Source: Alphaproteobacteria bacterium (GTDB taxonomy: Bacteria > Pseudomonadota > Alphaproteobacteria > UBA7887). Taken from it: a DNA stretch of 64,000 bases. Of the stretch, positions 3,801-46,535 are shown piece after piece. Location: NCBI GenBank assembly GCA_965216755.1, contig CBDCGL010000011.1:4544001-4608000 (forward strand), given 5' to 3'. Under the pieces are notes generated by a model. The model saw nothing but the letters and a program-made list of their open reading frames with translations. It did not search any database and was not told the DNA's origin. The position numbers and the translations under genes were made by a program. How positions within the stretch are numbered: position 1 is the stretch's first letter; every line of letters begins with the position of its first letter.

Positions 3801-4140
3801 AATAGACCAGGATCCCGTCGCCATAGAACTGGGCGACATAGCCCTCGTGCCCAGCGACGACACGGTTAGCCGTGGCACGATAGGTGCCCATGATTTCACG
3901 ATAGTCCTCTGGGTCCACGCTTTGTGACAGCGCGGTCGAGCCGACCAAATCGCAAAACATGACAGTTAAGTGGCGTCGTTCCGCGCCGCCACGTCTCGGA
4001 ACCGGGCGCGCGCCAGCGTCCGATGGGTGGCGCGCGGCGTCTGCCCCGGAGACCGTACCGTCCAGCCGGTTGCCGCATTGGCCGCAGAACCGGAAACGCG
4101 GATCATTTGGATTGTCAAAGCCGCAATGGCCACATTTCAT
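820..4140 (-). CDS. Class III adenylate/guanylate cyclase with N-terminal zinc ribbon, AAA ATPase and TPR-like region
   Basis: CGHC/CGQC ribbon; TVMFCDLVGST, FYGDG, VRVGIHSG and PNIAARIQ cyclase motifs; Walker A GDPGIGKS; LEDAHWID; C-terminal ELRAATSLARL. Confidence 0.9.
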   Translation of the reverse strand: MKCGHCGFDNPNDPRFRFCGQCGNRLDGTVSGADAARHPSDAGARPVPRRGGAERRHLTVMFCDLVGSTALSQSVDPEDYREIMGTYRATANRVVAGHEGYVAQFYGDGILVYFGYPSAHEDDAQRAVRAGLELIDVVADLDHDAGLSVRVGIHSGLVVVGQEHTADVLNSEDAIGGTPNIAARIQAAAAPNTVFVSAATHRLIAGYFDCVGRGSQDLRGVDAPMPIFEVHGSLDVATRLDAVGRALTPLVGRTHEIEAIAQAWDRTQEGRGGTIILTGDPGIGKSRVIAAVRAQFSAQEFSWLRHYCSTYHSATAFHPLIRALERRLGFSREMKVGEKQARLERMLSHFGLDVETHLPAFAALLSVPVDDRFAVPATSGIDQKERKLESLCALLLAIAARKPVLIVLEDAHWIDPSTAAFFERVIELAPAHRILLLIAHRADYESPWHYLPNVAHLPLKRLDNDQATAIVNGIEGAARLPAEIIAKIVKRADGVPIFLEEVTRMLLQRDPEQDPESADNNDRHPVLAVPETLQDSLMARLDGLGAAKDVAQLASVIGRTFNFDVLASVASLAEPALRGALAQLVNAGIISKRRTTADESYVFRHALIHDVAYESLLRRKRQQYHHTIGDTLATKFPGIAEATPGTVARHYAAAGLLDKALTYCIRAAERSVRSAAMAEALSETEKGLGWLETLPSGRAEKCMELRLRSLRAGALAASHGYAAPQVRLSLDRVLALAEELGDDRQTARALLGFYSHNLSTGRAREARHYAERLMALSERVDDSEITLAANTAVGVCLYDHGEIVKARAYLERASLMYRPSEAGQILGSQLNDLGVVCRSVLALVLWYLGYPDQAARAADSALEAAEHIGHPFSLAFALSVGGSVYARLGQWDVLKARAERSLAISTQHNFPTWRVHSMIHRGWAMVETGDIEAGLAEIDRGFEAGAPMWQRGPSTFYSASRATALCSAGRYDAAHDAIVQGLDRLTGKGGRAIAPELYRLRGELRLAAGTRGVLPNSVIDAAKKDLCSALQSAREQGEKSLELRAATSLARLRHAQGETPAAICVLKPVYDWFSEGFTSPDLIGAADLLHQLQAGAVPIRAAQPSA

Positions 4141-12442: not shown

Positions 12443-12615
12443 ACAATTGCGATCACGATTTAGCCTTCGGTCGGCCGCTGGTCGAGCGCATGATTATAGG
12501 CTATCAACGGGATCGACCATAGTTGAAGGCGCAGCCCGATGGCATAATGTGTGGCTGCGGGTACTATGGCATTCTAGCATTTGTGCCGATTATCTGAACC
12601 TTGAGAGAACGAGAC

Positions 12616-13410
12616 ATGATCGCGTACCGAATGGTCACCGCGTTATTTGGGTTCGTGGTATATGGGGCTCTTACTTCGGGGGTCCATGCTGCTGCCAGTG
12701 ACGATCCATTGGACTCGGCGCTTTGGCCGGAAATCTTTGCTATGGCCTTCGGTGAAAGTGAGCATGTCGCGGTGGTCTTTGACGACGCAATGCGTTTGAT
12801 GATGCCTGAGGTCGTGGAGGACGCACACCAGGTTCCGGTTATGGTCAAGATTCCTTCCGATCTGGGGACCGTGCGGGAATTTGTGCTGCTTGCCGAGAAT
12901 AATCCCATTCAAATGGTGACACGGGCTTTTCCGCACCGTCCGATCGAGGCGATCGGCATGAATATTCGGCTCGAAATGTCGACGCCTGTGCGGGCGGCGG
13001 CGCTGACCGGTGACGGCGTCTGGCACGTCAGTTCCGTCGCGGTGACGGTCATGGCGCCCGGTGGCTGTTCCATCGCATTACCTGGCGCCGGTGACGAGGT
13101 CGGCGAGGTGGCGCTAAAGACGTTTGATCGTGTCGGTGGGGCGGGCCGCGCCAAGGTGCGCATATTGCACCCAATGCACACAGGATTTGCGACCAACGAT
13201 GCGGGGAGCCTGATCCCTGCGTTCTATGTCGACCGCCTTGAAATCGCAGACGACGATGGGCCGATCGTTGACATGATCACCTGGGCGGCGATGGCGTCCG
13301 ATCCGACCATAATTCTCGATTTGCCTGCGCGTCGGCAGAGCCTGCGCATCACGGCCAGCGATTCCGAAGGCGGCCTGTTCGAGGCTTATGAGAACGCGCC
13401 GTCAATGTAA
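12616..13410 (+). CDS. Fused SoxY/SoxZ-like carrier protein (quinoprotein dehydrogenase-associated type)
   Basis: Signal peptide; VEDAHQVPV, ENNPI, GGC swinging-arm motif and SoxZ-like ILHPMHTG...IPAFY. Confidence 0.75.
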   Translation: MIAYRMVTALFGFVVYGALTSGVHAAASDDPLDSALWPEIFAMAFGESEHVAVVFDDAMRLMMPEVVEDAHQVPVMVKIPSDLGTVREFVLLAENNPIQMVTRAFPHRPIEAIGMNIRLEMSTPVRAAALTGDGVWHVSSVAVTVMAPGGCSIALPGAGDEVGEVALKTFDRVGGAGRAKVRILHPMHTGFATNDAGSLIPAFYVDRLEIADDDGPIVDMITWAAMASDPTIILDLPARRQSLRITASDSEGGLFEAYENAPSM

Positions 13411-15034: not shown

Positions 15035-15175
15035 AAAGTCGAGGTTTGAAATTTACCTCCTCCTAACAGAGCTCGCATAGCATTAGGGACGCCAGGCATC
15101 CGGGTGCCACACGGGACGCTTTTTTGCAGAAGGCCAGCGACCTTGATCCAGCAGTTTCCGCCGCGGCGTTCCGCG

Positions 15176-16627
15176 ATGAACCGGCCCACCGAGGACGCCA
15201 ATCGAACCCAAGATAAGGGCCTGGAAGGATTGGTCCGAGCCAGTTTCGGGGATCATCGGCTTTATCGCACCGTGCTCGAGAATATAACCGACGCCCTATA
15301 TGTGCGCGGGCCTGGCCGTGAACTGTTGTATATGAACCCGGCCGCCGAGCGCCTGACGGGCTGGTCACGTACCAAAGCCGAGGTTTTACCCTGCTACGAG
15401 GTGTTTGGCGACGTTGGCCAGGCTTGCAATCGCAATTGTCCCGTCGACCGCGCGTGCGCTGAGAGAACAAGTGTCACACATGTCGAGGGCAATGTGGTTC
15501 GAAAGGATGGCACCAAATTGCCCGTCGCAGCGTCGATATCGCCCGTGTACGAGGGCGATCATGTCGTTGCCTCGATTGTCTTGTTGTCGGATTTGACGGA
15601 GTTGCAGGCGCTGCAACGGGCGAATAACGATGCCCTGACGCGGCTCGCGAAGATGCACGAGGCGCTGCAAAAGAGCGAGAGCCTGTTCCGTGATTTCGCG
15701 GAGGTTTCTTCGGATTGGTTTTGGGAAACTGATGAAGAACATCGCTTCAGGGACGTCTTTGGCGAATCCTTAAGCCCTCCGAGTTCTTTTCTAGGCAAGA
15801 CACGTCGGGATGTGATCGCACACGATGTGGCGCCGGATGTTTGGTCCACTCATGAGGAAGATCTGGCGGCGCGCCGTTCGTTCCGCGACTTTGTTTATCC
15901 AATGCGAGGGCCCGGTGGTCATTTGGTTTGGGTCCGCATTTCCGGCAAGCCCATACAGTGCGCCGACGGCTCGTTCGCAGGCTATCGCGGCGTCGGTCAT
16001 GATGTGACCGCCGAAATGGAAGCCCGACGGCGCATTGAACGCTTGGCCAGCTATGATGATTTGACCGGTTTGGCCAATCGCCGCCTGTTTGATGATCTAT
16101 TGGCAAAATCAATTGCCCGCGCGACCCGAGATCGGCGAATGCTGGCGCTTTTGATGATCGATCTTGACGGGTTTAAGGCTGTCAACGACGGTTTCGGACA
16201 TCAAGCGGGTGATGCGCTCTTGATCGACGTTGGCGACCGTCTGACGGTGGCGGTACGCGCCAGTGACACCGTTGCGCGCTTGGGCGGCGATGAATTCGCG
16301 GTGATCGTGCCCGATGCCGCGGATCAACGGGCGATTACCGCGGTGGCCCAGAAAATCGTGTCGGCGGTTCGACAACCGGTCACAATAGGTGACAACGAGG
16401 TGGCGGTATCTGCGAGCGTCGGTATCGCTGTCTATCCGGATGACGCGGTCGACCCGGCGGTCTTGTTCCGGCGCGCTGACATGGCGATGTACGCGGCCAA
16501 AAATGCCGGCAAAAACAACTATGTCAGGTACGTGCCTCCACCGTCGACCGAGCTATCCAAGGATCCGGCGGGCGTGTCGAATCCGTTGAGAGATCGCAGG
16601 CGTGCGCGCAAACAGGCGCGCACGTGA
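15176..16627 (+). CDS. PAS-PAS-GGDEF diguanylate cyclase
   Basis: Two PAS/PAC domains; YDDLTGLANR, DLDGFKAVND and intact RLGGDEF. Confidence 0.9.
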   Translation: MNRPTEDANRTQDKGLEGLVRASFGDHRLYRTVLENITDALYVRGPGRELLYMNPAAERLTGWSRTKAEVLPCYEVFGDVGQACNRNCPVDRACAERTSVTHVEGNVVRKDGTKLPVAASISPVYEGDHVVASIVLLSDLTELQALQRANNDALTRLAKMHEALQKSESLFRDFAEVSSDWFWETDEEHRFRDVFGESLSPPSSFLGKTRRDVIAHDVAPDVWSTHEEDLAARRSFRDFVYPMRGPGGHLVWVRISGKPIQCADGSFAGYRGVGHDVTAEMEARRRIERLASYDDLTGLANRRLFDDLLAKSIARATRDRRMLALLMIDLDGFKAVNDGFGHQAGDALLIDVGDRLTVAVRASDTVARLGGDEFAVIVPDAADQRAITAVAQKIVSAVRQPVTIGDNEVAVSASVGIAVYPDDAVDPAVLFRRADMAMYAAKNAGKNNYVRYVPPPSTELSKDPAGVSNPLRDRRRARKQART

Positions 16628-16674: not shown

Positions 16675-16824
16675 CTATTCCTGGGCTTCTTTTTCGATCG
16701 CCTCGCCAGCCTTTTGAACATCTCTGCCGAAACCCTCGGCGGTGTTGCATCCTGTCAAGGAAAGCAGCGCCAAAGTGACGACCGTCACCGCCAATGCCGA
16801 CCAGTTGCGTGACAAACGTAACAT
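16675..16824 (-). CDS. Entericidin A/B family lipoprotein
   Basis: 49 aa; lipobox LTGC followed by NTAEGFGRDV; AAGGAGG RBS. Confidence 0.85.
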   Translation of the reverse strand: MLRLSRNWSALAVTVVTLALLSLTGCNTAEGFGRDVQKAGEAIEKEAQE

Positions 16825-16973: not shown

Positions 16974-17237
16974 ATGATCCATGACGATGTGGAGATCGAC
17001 GAACCGGAAGGTATGTGGCGGATCTGGGTTGACCGCGATCCATCCGGTGCGTTTCGGCGCTTGTGCATTGGCCAATCGCCACCAGAGGCTGCCGAAGTCT
17101 TGTTCGAGAGCGAGAACATTGATGTCGTCCAACGACAGAAATGGGCGATCGAATGGCGGATCGCGAATGGGCAGCAGGATCTCGGCAACGACGAGGATCA
17201 GGCGCCTGTGGCCACCACCGGCACAACCGGCCGCTAG
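16974..17237 (+). CDS. Small hypothetical protein
   Basis: 87-aa acidic ORF; no motif recognised. Confidence 0.35.
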   Translation: MIHDDVEIDEPEGMWRIWVDRDPSGAFRRLCIGQSPPEAAEVLFESENIDVVQRQKWAIEWRIANGQQDLGNDEDQAPVATTGTTGR

Positions 17238-17500: not shown

Positions 17501-18502
17501 ATGGCGAATAGTCCGTCAACACCTGCGGTCAAAGGGTTGGACCTGGGCACGAGCCGAATCGTCGTTGCGCGCCCCCGCGGGGAAAAGGTTGCTTTCGATG
17601 AACAACTCAATGCCTTTGTGGCGCTGCCATACGCAAAGATGACCGAAGGAATGTTGGAGCGGGAATCGATTTCGTATCGCGTCGAGAACGACGAGATCCT
17701 CGCCTACGGCAATCGCGTCGACGAGTTTGCGAATATTTTTGGTGGCGACACGCGTCGGCCCATGCAGACCGGGTTGCTGAATTCAAGCGAACCCCTGAGC
17801 CTGCAAATGGTCGAGCTGATGCTGGAGGAGATGGTCGGCGAGGCCCGCAAGGGCGAGAAGATTTGCTTCAGTGTGCCCGGCGCTCCCCCCGGTCATGAGA
17901 GCGATCTCTTGTACCACGAACGCACGGTAACCCAATTTCTGGAAGCCCTCGGGTATCAAGTAAAGAGCTTGAATGAAGGTCTTGCGATCGTGTTTTCGGA
18001 ACTGGAAAGTGCGGGTTTTACCGGCATTGGCGTCAGTTTCGGCGGCGGCATGTGCAATGTCTGTTTGGCTTACCTTGGTCTGCCGGTCATCACGTTCTGT
18101 ACCGTCCGCGCTGGCGACTATATCGACCGAAGCGCTGCTTCGGTCACCGGCAACACCCCCGTTAACGTGCGCATGCACAAGGAAGAGGACTTCGTTCTTG
18201 ACGGATTGAGTGACGACAATCTTGACCAAGCGTTGTCTGTATATTACGGCGACGTGGTGCGCAGTGTCGTTGATGGCTTGGAAACACATTTGGCAGATAC
18301 CAGCAAGCTGCCACGAATCACCAAGCCGATTCCGATCGCCCTGGGTGGCGGTACGGCCCGCGTCGATGGTTTTGAAGCGGAGTTTGAGAAGGCGGTGAGG
18401 GAAGCGGATTTACCGATTGAGATATCGGACGTTGAACTGGCCAAGACGCCACATTTCTGTACGGCCAAGGGAACGCTGATGGCGGCACTGTTGAATATGT
18501 GA
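17501..18502 (+). CDS. Actin-like ATPase resembling the haloarchaeal volactin family
   Basis: Phosphate-1 GLDLGT, connect-1 NEGLA, phosphate-2 SFGGG and adenosine LGGGT motifs; strong AGGAGG RBS. Confidence 0.8.
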   Translation: MANSPSTPAVKGLDLGTSRIVVARPRGEKVAFDEQLNAFVALPYAKMTEGMLERESISYRVENDEILAYGNRVDEFANIFGGDTRRPMQTGLLNSSEPLSLQMVELMLEEMVGEARKGEKICFSVPGAPPGHESDLLYHERTVTQFLEALGYQVKSLNEGLAIVFSELESAGFTGIGVSFGGGMCNVCLAYLGLPVITFCTVRAGDYIDRSAASVTGNTPVNVRMHKEEDFVLDGLSDDNLDQALSVYYGDVVRSVVDGLETHLADTSKLPRITKPIPIALGGGTARVDGFEAEFEKAVREADLPIEISDVELAKTPHFCTAKGTLMAALLNM

Positions 18503-18550
18503 TTTTGTTTGGCGGGGCCTTTTCGCGACTGACATGGGGATGTTCGTCGG

Positions 18551-18835
18551 ATGGGGGAGGCGAATTCAGAGGCCAAGGCAGCCAGCACAAGGCTACCGGG
18601 TGCCGGGTCGGACGCGGGCTCGTCGGCGGTTGTTGGCGAGGGGCGCGAGGCCGACTTGTCGCTCGAGGAGCTTAAGGCCGCGGCACGCCGCCTCAAGTCC
18701 GAACATGACCTGTTTCACCTTCTAAATCGCTTGAGCAAGCCTCTTGATGAGGACGCCGGCGCTGGCAAAGGCGCGCGCCTCGCTTCACGGTGGCTCACGC
18801 GCTTGCTCAGACGGGTCGGTCGCCGCAAATTGTAG
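18551..18835 (+). CDS. Small hypothetical protein with a basic amphipathic C-terminal helix
   Basis: Co-oriented 48 nt after the actin-like gene; ends LASRWLTRLLRRVGRRKL. Confidence 0.5.
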   Translation: MGEANSEAKAASTRLPGAGSDAGSSAVVGEGREADLSLEELKAAARRLKSEHDLFHLLNRLSKPLDEDAGAGKGARLASRWLTRLLRRVGRRKL

Positions 18836-18872: not shown

Positions 18873-19901
18873 TCAGAACTCGTAGGCGAGGCTGGCCTTG
18901 GTAACCGTGTCCGTTGCAACGGAATCGGTGGGCGGGCTGCTATTGTGCCGAACCTCGAAGGCGAGCTTGCCCGACCATTGGGCCATGATCTTGGCCGAAA
19001 GCGCCGTGACTGTTTTTGTGGTCGTGCGTTCTTCGCCGACAACCACCGACGTGTCGTTTGTCAGTGCCGCGTTGTCTGAAATCTGCCACTCTAAACCACT
19101 GGTAATTCTGCCAATCAGCTCGACCTCGGTTTGGCCGGTGGCGGTTACGCGGCTTTGGCGCGAGCCTGGACCCGCCTCGAGATCGAAAGTCAGTCTTGGC
19201 CGATCGATAAGCCGGTAGCCAACACCAATACTCTCAGTCAATTGCCAGTCAAATCCGCTGAATCGGTCATCTTCATACTCGATGAATCCGAAGCTATAGG
19301 CGCGGCCATTGAAGTGGTAGCGGGTCTCGCCGTTGACCAGCAGGCGCTGTTTCTTGGTTTCCCCGTCGTCGCGGGCAAGATCGAAGCTTGAGCCCAGATC
19401 ATGCTCCCAGTCGGAATAAGTGCCGACGAGCTTTGCCGCCACGCTGACACTGTCCGTCCGGCTATTTCCGGTAGTCCGGCTGCCGCCGAGCTCGATTTCG
19501 CCGGACCAGGGCGGCTCGGCACCGGGCGCGCTTGCTTCACTCGGCGCGGCCGTCGTATCTGCCGCGGCGACCACACCGCCATAGGCGGCTTGGCGTATGA
19601 TGCCGTTAAAGCCCGGATAGGCGCTGGCCACCCTATCGGCAATGGCCTCGGCATTATCCGGATCAATCGAAACCGCGTAGCCGACAAGCGCCGCGCTGAA
19701 CTCAGGGCGTCGGCTGATTTCGGCGATTATCGTGCTGATCAAGACATTGCCGCCGCCCTGGCGAAACGCATTGTCCAGGGCCGCCGTCGCGTTTGCGGGC
19801 AAGGTTGTTTGGCCGAACGCCGCCGACGTTACGACGATGATGGTCAGGCTAACAGCGAAGCTATTGACTACCGTGCGGGACTGACGGTCGCTGTGGGCCA
19901 T
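18873..19901 (-). CDS. DUF481 (YdiY-like) outer-membrane beta-barrel protein with an N-terminal helical extension
   Basis: WSGEIELG..TTGNS, YEDDRFSGFD, GVGYRL; C-terminal LAYEF; start uncertain. Confidence 0.8.
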   Translation of the reverse strand: MAHSDRQSRTVVNSFAVSLTIIVVTSAAFGQTTLPANATAALDNAFRQGGGNVLISTIIAEISRRPEFSAALVGYAVSIDPDNAEAIADRVASAYPGFNGIIRQAAYGGVVAAADTTAAPSEASAPGAEPPWSGEIELGGSRTTGNSRTDSVSVAAKLVGTYSDWEHDLGSSFDLARDDGETKKQRLLVNGETRYHFNGRAYSFGFIEYEDDRFSGFDWQLTESIGVGYRLIDRPRLTFDLEAGPGSRQSRVTATGQTEVELIGRITSGLEWQISDNAALTNDTSVVVGEERTTTKTVTALSAKIMAQWSGKLAFEVRHNSSPPTDSVATDTVTKASLAYEF

Positions 19902-20104
19902 GATGGCCGGCAACTCCGATTGCGAGCGGGGCGGCATCATCGTGCATTGGCGCGGCAAGGGCCAGTGACAACAAAAATACTCGCTGTGATTATTTTTCTT
20001 CCCGTGAGCTGAGCATATCTTGTAGCGCTCATGAAAAGGGAAGGCTATATTTCGTGCCGGCAACGTTGGGAGGCACACATATCTATCCTATCGGGGGGCA
20101 TTGA

Positions 20105-20503
20105 ATGTCACTTTCTGACGCGGATTTGGACGTCACTAAGGGCTTGTACGAACGACTACTCTCTGAACTCTCCGACATGGAGGTCCGTCTACAAAAAGGG
20201 CACACCAACGCGGCGCGTCTGATGTGCGGGTCGTTGGTTTTTGCAGCGTCGGCCTATATCGGTTCGTGCCTCGCCGACGATGTATTCGAGGATGACAAGA
20301 AAGACGGGGACGTCGAAGACCAAGTCGAGTTGGTGGCCGGATGGATGCGTCTGTTTGGAGAACATGTGGCAAAGTCGTTACAACATCGCGTCGAGCACAA
20401 GCGGGATGTTGACAAGGATGTGCCGCCGCCGCTGGACGACGCGGGCGAGATCGACTTCTCGGGTTTCGATACACCAGTGTTTGCGCGCCAAGGGCTTCGC
20501 TGA
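20105..20503 (+). CDS. Hypothetical protein
   Basis: 132-aa ORF with a G-rich RBS; no motif recognised. Confidence 0.45.
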   Translation: MSLSDADLDVTKGLYERLLSELSDMEVRLQKGHTNAARLMCGSLVFAASAYIGSCLADDVFEDDKKDGDVEDQVELVAGWMRLFGEHVAKSLQHRVEHKRDVDKDVPPPLDDAGEIDFSGFDTPVFARQGLR

Positions 20504-46459: not shown

Positions 46460-46535
46460 GCCCAGGTAGCTCAGTTGGTAGAGCAGTGGACTGAAAATCC
46501 TCGTGTCGGTGGTTCAATTCCTCCCCTGGGCACCA
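46460..46535 (+). tRNA. tRNA-Phe(GAA)
   Basis: 76-nt cloverleaf GCCCAGG...CTGAAAA...TTCAATT...CCTGGGCACCA. Confidence 0.95.

Follow-up and report, generated by a model that had tools for sequence, protein, structure and literature searches.

What is a volactin-like actin gene doing in an alphaproteobacterium, and does the small gene that follows it belong to the same system? The question is raised by a stretch of 64,000 nucleotides (nt) from an Alphaproteobacteria bacterium (GCA_965216755.1, contig CBDCGL010000011.1, positions 4,544,001 to 4,608,000), referred to below as the window. In the initial annotation, two neighboring open reading frames (ORFs), here ORF A and ORF B, were proposed to form an uncharacterized bacterial cytoskeletal module of an actin homolog and a putative membrane anchor. 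Both frames are present, and the features that concern us are as follows:

17501..18502, + strand: ORF A, 333 amino acids (aa), predicted actin-fold ATPase of the volactin family (PF25216 match, structure model, motifs)
18503..18550, + strand: spacer of 48 nt between ORF A and ORF B, with GGGGA 10 nt before the ATG
18551..18835, + strand: ORF B, 94 aa, an orphan without homologs and a candidate lineage-specific adaptor (codon usage, complex model)
18650..18715, + strand: ORF B residues 34-55, predicted docking segment (complex model)
18770..18832, + strand: ORF B residues 74-94, a basic and amphipathic helix that may target the membrane (hydrophobic moment, charge)

Overall, we suggest, with a probability of about 0.55, that ORF A is a volactin-family actin and that ORF B serves it as a lineage-specific membrane adaptor.

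An actin of the volactin family

In a Pfam profile search, ORF A matched Volactin (PF25216) with 262.9 bits against a cut-off of 35 (E-value 6.3e-78), its residues 11-329 aligning end to end with the model (positions 3-321 of 321). A six-frame search of the genome gave the same gene 262.6 bits. Among 14 control genomes, PF25216 exceeded its cut-off only in Haloferax volcanii; the signal from the MreB-bearing E. coli, Deinococcus and Thermotoga stayed below it. The host has a separate MreB-like gene (C11:4109281, ~450 kb from ORF A; 21.4 bits with PF25216), and ORF A is an extra actin beside this ordinary MreB.

Models of other actins did not recognize ORF A. Both salactin models remained under their cut-offs (PF25229, 19.6 versus 27.1 bits, aligned in the C-terminal third only; NCBIfam NF053533, 18.6 versus 400 bits), as did the MamK model (NCBIfam NF040964, 26.2 versus 400 bits), and MreB_Mbl (PF06723) was absent from the matches at E-value ≤ 1. 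PDB chain sequences gave no match at E-value ≤ 10. Neither ParMRC repeats nor a DNA-binding adaptor were found at the locus, and between 4 and 34 kb of the window there are no mre (mreCD), rodZ, fts, par or mam genes, in agreement with what had been noted for mreCD, fts, par and mam. Since PF25216 passes in ORF A and in H. volcanii while the other actin models fail, the likeness to volactin, which the initial annotation had proposed in preference to MreB, MamK and ParM, is confirmed. Judged from these profiles, membership of ORF A in the volactin family is practically certain.

The nucleotide-site motifs of ORF A are all in place: phosphate-1 (D14, G16, T17), E159, the adenosine motif (G283, G284), and a phosphate-2 motif that reads S179-x-G-x-G-M-x-N186. 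The replacement of the phosphate-2 Asp by Ser (SFGGG), which had caught the eye earlier, is real; the host MreB has Asp at this position. We followed motif conservation in an alignment of full-length sequences representing 116 clusters, together with 77 related loci. D14, G16, T17, E159, G181, G183, G283 and G284 are near-invariant, Ser occupies the phosphate-2 position in 110 of the 116 representatives and in 77/77 loci, and N186, the Asn seven residues past S179, is kept in 110/116. Because Ser is so widely shared, SFGGG can be considered a family trait. We read the combination of Ser with G-x-G-M-x-N as a family signature and not as an oddity of ORF A; this is our own reading of the alignments and not a published definition.

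An AlphaFold2 model of ORF A, built with 35 homologs in the alignment, reached a mean predicted local distance difference test (pLDDT) score of 90.8 and a predicted template modeling score of 0.88. In a Foldseek search of the PDB, the best single match was MamK (5ljv, E-value 7.7e-16, template modeling (TM) score 0.71), along with Caulobacter and Thermotoga MreB and BeeR (8r2n, TM score 0.74), and then FtsA, actin and Arp2/3. Filament-forming actins (MamK, MreB/Mbl, BeeR) take the first 25 places and make up nearly the whole list of 46 matches. Sequence identity to the matches is 10-19%. MamK is the closest in structure, but its sequence model fails and mam genes are lacking; MreB is also a top structural match, yet PF06723 goes unlisted and the solved MreBs are only 12-19% identical. 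By this model, ORF A has an actin (ASKHA) fold nearest to that of the filament-forming actins.

Haloferax volactin forms dynamic filaments whose only contact with the membrane is at the tips (PMC10869688). Given the predicted fold, the intact nucleotide motifs and this behavior of the Haloferax protein, ORF A is most likely an ATP-binding protein that polymerizes into filaments in the cytoplasm, and we hold filament formation to be quite likely. No membrane-binding element was seen in the ORF A termini. Volactin itself (VolA, HVO_2015) shares with ORF A the Pfam family, matched over the full length, and the actin fold; it differs in its archaeal host and in its neighboring genes. The two are probably distant cousins, because none of the best 150 cluster representatives has a haloarchaeal amino-acid composition. 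The role of VolA in the rod-to-disk transition is known for Haloferax only and is not transferable to ORF A. Another bacterial actin-like protein, Mad28 of deep-branching magnetotactic bacteria, polymerizes in vitro and keeps only three of five ATP-binding motifs (PMC10653835); unlike the Mad28 setting, the window contains no magnetosome island.

A candidate membrane adaptor downstream

ORF B starts with a low-complexity stretch, has a helix in its center and ends in a basic amphipathic helix; it has no transmembrane segment. Its codon score of 0.142 per codon lies at the 33rd percentile of real coding windows and is reached by only 3.5% of 889 spurious ORFs; both other frames score negative. 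The Trp/Arg-rich C-terminal helix pointed out in the initial annotation is real and extreme: the hydrophobic moment of residues 74-91 is 0.88 and their net charge +6. None of the 1518 C-termini taken from long ORFs reaches this moment; genome-wide, 4 of 35,370 open segments with lengths of 60-140 aa do. Because a scan found no terminator-like site between ORF A and ORF B, we infer that the two are co-transcribed; otherwise the promoter/terminator scan and an Rfam search at the locus gave nothing of note. Codon usage, the extreme tail and the complex model described next make us lean toward ORF B being a real gene.

When ORF A and ORF B were modeled together as a complex, the interface score ipSAE was 0.82, 0.83 and 0.83, versus 0.01 for the best of three controls. 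The benchmark mark for this score is reached by 116/157 solved complexes and by 2/215 mismatched pairs. Between runs, 46% or more of the contacts are shared. In the predicted contact, ORF B residues 34-55 meet ORF A residues 7-8, 25-30, 165-174, 191-194 and 316-333; that is, the central helix of ORF B would dock on the C-terminal helix, the 25-30 hairpin and residues 165-174 and 191-194 of ORF A. We take this surface to be the cleft between subdomains IA and IIA, going by the general topology of the actin fold. The face at the junction of subdomains IA and IIA takes part in subunit contacts along actin-like filaments. A partner on that surface would therefore either work at the end of a filament or control assembly.

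The basic amphipathic tail of ORF B (residues 74-94) would lie on the inner membrane, and docking and tail together would tether the filaments, possibly by their ends. MinD, FtsA and MreB carry amphipathic membrane-targeting helices. The ORF B tail is likewise amphipathic and basic, but this candidate sits on a separate 94-aa adaptor and not on the filament protein. End-on attachment would match the imaged Haloferax volactin, whose contact with the membrane by the tips only (PMC10869688) is what an end-binding tether would give. As to the strength of the individual steps, translation of ORF B and its binding to ORF A, a step for which we have the model only, seem to us slightly less likely than not; if it does bind, membrane tethering is somewhat favored.

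Partners in the relatives and the case for ORF B

A word-indexed protein search with ORF A returned 2473 proteins at E-value ≤ 1e-3. The best 120 of them all carry PF25216 and are 56-68% identical to ORF A (self excluded), and the few with names are bacterial 'hypothetical proteins'. An exhaustive search of 50%-identity clusters gave 1119 clusters at E-value ≤ 1e-3 and 301 at E-value ≤ 1e-30. In species-representative genomes at least 578 stretches matched the search patterns, 524 were confirmed, and the best 80 were taken as related loci (L014-L093). All 80 come from metagenome-assembled genomes (MAGs) of Alphaproteobacteria and Acidobacteriota, with two labeled Clostridia. The alphaproteobacterial loci belong to Acetobacteraceae, Geminicoccaceae, Stellaceae and Rhodospirillales (54-61% identity to ORF A), and those of Acidobacteriota mostly to Bryobacterales and Terriglobia (44-61%). 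Volactin-domain clusters of the ESM Atlas are mainly from Acidobacteriota, one cluster being 51% viral. Viral contigs yielded 17 relatives of ORF A, only 27-37% identical and thus no close phage relatives. The volactin family is common in soil Acidobacteriota. In the literature searched (subscription journals lay outside its scope) no description of bacterial PF25216 members was found and volactin is treated as haloarchaeal; as far as this literature goes, the bacterial members are uncharacterized, as had been supposed for ORF A.

A partner gene directly upstream of the actin gene accompanies 75 of the 80 related loci, and it comes in two types. The amidase type (59 loci, mostly in Acidobacteriota) is a same-strand gene of ~380 aa that ends just before the actin gene, and Amidase_2 was found in 58/59. 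L014:2648-3946 with L014:4001-4999 is an example of such an amidase-actin pair. The structure model of the amidase-type partner (pLDDT 84.3) has a globular domain matching AmpD, AmpDh2, AmiD and T7 lysozyme. In 37 of the 44 proteins where both landmarks could be placed, a transmembrane-like hydrophobic stretch separates a conserved N-terminal motif from the amidase domain. This order of elements points to a bitopic layout of the RodZ/MreB kind: the N-terminus would be in the cytoplasm, a single span would cross the membrane, and the peptidoglycan amidase would be outside. As in MreB-RodZ, a bitopic membrane protein would link an actin to peptidoglycan metabolism; the difference is that the partner carries a hydrolase whereas MreB-RodZ guides synthases, and the window has no such partner. 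In Acidobacteriota, nearly every actin gene of the family has such an amidase beside it. A pair of an actin and a membrane-spanning peptidoglycan amidase appears to be undescribed in the literature searched. Amidase-type partners are also seen ~390 nt upstream of the actin genes of L072 and L080, the MAGs labeled Clostridia; these near-identical actins group with a representative fused to HU, and their Clostridia label may stem from binning or from another transfer.

The coiled-coil type was found in 16 alphaproteobacterial loci as a gene of ~155-250 aa with no Pfam family. The N-terminal motif of this protein is strongly conserved, a Leu-rich segment is conserved as well, and a coiled coil is present; it has no membrane span, and 3/15 of these partners show a moderately amphipathic basic tail. 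Loci of this type include L017, L020-L028, L030, L031, L034, L045 and L054 (upstream of position 4001). L016, L019, L029 and L035 lack both types, and L033 is without upstream DNA. Hidden Markov model (HMM) searches found neither type in the window; in the whole host genome, the HMM of the alphaproteobacterial coiled-coil partner had no match at E-value ≤ 10 and that of the amidase type had only a generic Amidase_2 match ~3.8 Mb away. In the relatives, the gene directly upstream would thus couple the filament to the cell envelope, through a bitopic amidase protein in Acidobacteriota and a coiled-coil protein in most Alphaproteobacteria, with the present genome having neither.

The idea of a conserved two-gene module did not survive this comparison, because ORF B is not conserved next to homologs of ORF A. 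The downstream frame does not co-occur with the actin gene, and the relatives carry different, upstream partners. Several results weigh against ORF B as an adaptor. It found nothing better than E-value 0.6 in the 80 related loci, only itself at 51-165 aa and nothing longer in a collection of 5.8 billion proteins, and no paralog in the host genome. It has no positional counterpart, the ORFs downstream of the actin gene in the 80 loci being heterogeneous and spurious-looking. Nor did it show detectable similarity to the alphaproteobacterial partner: an HMM of 15 such partners gave it 0.1 bits (E-value 44) among 1298 window segments, an HMM of their N-terminal motif ranked it 3943 of 52,633 genome segments, and a likeness of ORF B residues 34-50 to this motif that had been seen by eye is supported by neither. 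The docking surface of ORF A is no more conserved than the rest (0.423 versus 0.507), 95.6% of random residue sets scoring as high. ORF B was folded without an alignment and reached a pLDDT of only 52-54 in the complex. The complex controls were globular proteins and not other amphipathic helices. Helix-in-cleft complexes have reportedly been solved for ParM-ParR and for actin-WH2, so the high complex score may reflect likeness to them.

These results are best accommodated, among the alternatives, if ORF A is a working volactin-family actin that acts alone or with unlinked partners. ORF B would then be either a small protein unrelated to it or a frame left open by chance in GC-rich DNA. The four loci lacking a recognizable partner show the same state as would then hold here, and the convergent DUF481 gene ends only 37 nt past ORF B, so that the ORF B stretch could be a long 3' region. 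However, the codon usage of ORF B is coding-like in one frame specifically, its tail amphipathicity is matched in only four open segments of the genome, and its complex score stands far above the controls. Moreover, since 75/80 relatives keep an adjacent partner, a partnerless actin gene would be the exception. We consider this alternative serious and rather unlikely.

In another alternative, ORF B binds ORF A as an assembly regulator (capping, sequestering or nucleating) and not as a membrane tether. The modeled contact lies at the IA/IIA junction, a face engaged along filaments. The extreme basic amphipathic tail lies outside the modeled interface and would be difficult to account for if the regulator were purely soluble; we find this version improbable. 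We retain ORF B as a credible candidate for a lineage-specific adaptor, although it is not a conserved partner.

Origin, surroundings and wider meaning

PF25216 is rare around the host. It exceeded its cut-off in one of 61 relatives, the host itself (22 of the others are from the same family), and in one of 401 genomes drawn evenly from the host class, again the host only (0/400 others). In the host phylum 22/401 genomes were positive, the 21 others belonging to four families of other classes. One family (f228) accounts for 17 of these 21 and has the gene in most of its sampled genomes; its carriers have open frames of 375-430 aa (positive genomes include G583, G589 and G607; loci L094-L098). 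In the order of a Bryobacterales MAG, the gene was found in 65/151 genomes.

In an IQ-TREE tree of 67 rows (quick mode, with Shimodaira-Hasegawa-like approximate likelihood ratio test (SH-aLRT) support only), ORF A falls in a 19-row clade with all 17 alphaproteobacterial loci (SH-aLRT 92), within which it is a deep third branch. This clade is nested in sets of 21, 23 and 40 rows (98, 100 and 97, respectively), where every other named row is from Acidobacteriota. The same placement was obtained in a FastTree tree of 197 rows. Horizontal acquisition, raised as a possibility in the initial annotation, thus looks probable from the scarcity of the gene in the host class, its frequency in the Bryobacterales order and the nesting in the tree. 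ORF A was most likely acquired within a lineage that passed from Acidobacteriota to Alphaproteobacteria. This passage is the simplest reading, and its direction is only an inference because a single, very long MreB branch determines the root. The codon score of ORF A (0.247 per codon) is above the mean of host coding windows (0.166), so any transfer is not recent.

Other signs of transfer are neutral or absent. GC content is 0.56 over the ORF A gene and 0.58-0.60 around it, which speaks neither for nor against transfer. No integrase, transposase, phage or plasmid genes lie between 4 and 34 kb of the window, and its sole tRNA is at 46460. An ortholog of the flanking DUF481 gene was found in 1/25 relatives (34% identity), and synteny is therefore unusable for insertion boundaries. 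The RpoB core of the host is 77-79% identical to that of three alphaproteobacterial MAGs, a comparison made within the class only, and is consistent with the alphaproteobacterial label.

The history of the gene bears on a further alternative, namely that a two-gene module was transferred and lost its partner gene, leaving ORF A as a stranded remnant with no current function. Both partner types are indeed missing from the host genome, save for the distant generic amidase match. Nevertheless, the frame is intact with every nucleotide-binding motif, and the above-mean codon score argues for long residence under selection; this makes a remnant very improbable.

Extensions of more than 60 aa are found at the N-terminus in 43 and at the C-terminus in 12 of the 116 full-length representatives. 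All 38 extended representatives scanned contain a full Volactin domain, with fusions to HU (1), a ParB-type helix-turn-helix (4), a zinc ribbon (3) or a receiver domain (1), tandem forms with two Volactin stretches (2) and a Wzz/tyrosine-kinase-like module (1). The fused and tandem members are P0125, P0171, P0200, P0208, P0209, P0133, P0145, P0150, P0146, P0203, P0126 and P0170. Such architectures suggest DNA-linked and signal-controlled uses elsewhere in the family. Like ParR with ParM, ORF B is a partner modeled with a short helix in the IA/IIA cleft. The HU and ParB-type fusions could hint at a ParM-like DNA-segregation system. However, the locus has no iteron-like or centromere repeats (only two-copy matches of 10-14 nt), ORF U (see below) and ORF B have no DNA-binding domain, the contig is 4.85 Mb long with housekeeping genes and no plasmid or phage genes around the locus, and the DNA-binding fusions sit in other clades. 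A segregation role here is scarcely credible. Least credible of all is a non-polymerizing ASKHA-fold enzyme or chaperone: the catalytic phosphate-2 Asp is replaced and no PDB sequence matches, but the Ser is common to the whole family, including the filament-forming volactin, and the structural matches are led by 25 filament-forming actins, with a EutJ-type chain at rank 38 only.

One more frame precedes ORF A:

16974..17237, + strand: ORF U, 87 aa, acidic, coding-like orphan (total codon score 17.3)

A GGGGG stretch precedes its ATG. Pfam and PHROG searches with ORF U gave no match, nothing like it was found in the 80 loci or elsewhere in the genome, and whether it belongs to the ORF A unit is uncertain. 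Further upstream are a PAS-PAS-GGDEF diguanylate cyclase (15104-16627, +) and a 48-aa lipoprotein of the entericidin family (16675-16824, -); the ~675 nt from the latter to ORF A hold only ORF U. Downstream, the DUF481 gene (18873-20078, -) converges on ORF B with 37 nt between stop codons and is divergent from a 132-aa ORF of no known family (20105-20503, +). SoxY and SoxZ domains are fused in one ORF (12601-13410, +), with no other sox genes among the neighbors scanned. A defense-system reading was rejected, as PADLOC gave no hit at the locus. The cyclase, the entericidin-like lipoprotein and the DUF481 protein give no clear lead on the role of the filament.

It is tempting to generalize. 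Volactin-family actins might be a widespread and so far unstudied bacterial cytoskeleton. Its filaments would be connected to the envelope through adaptors that are unrelated and interchangeable, and that all dock a short helix on one and the same actin face. Three adaptor types would then exist: the amidase in Acidobacteriota, which would bring about filament-positioned cell-wall hydrolysis; the coiled-coil protein in most Alphaproteobacteria carrying the gene; and the 94-aa ORF B with its membrane-binding tail, arisen de novo after the transferred gene had lost its original partner. We regard this generalization as speculative and unlikely to hold as a whole.

For the family, the most useful by-product lies outside the window: the pair of an actin and a transmembrane amidase, common in Bryobacterales. 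There, an amidase-paired actin would be a second link from actin to the cell wall beside MreB, built on a hydrolase. For the organism, ORF A is a new bacterial variant of a known actin family, probably acquired horizontally. The window may hold a gene that moved to another phylum and lost its partner, and whose tethering an orphan small protein may have taken over. This would be a case of partner replacement in a cytoskeletal module, and perhaps of the birth of a new adaptor gene, that can be tested with two small proteins.

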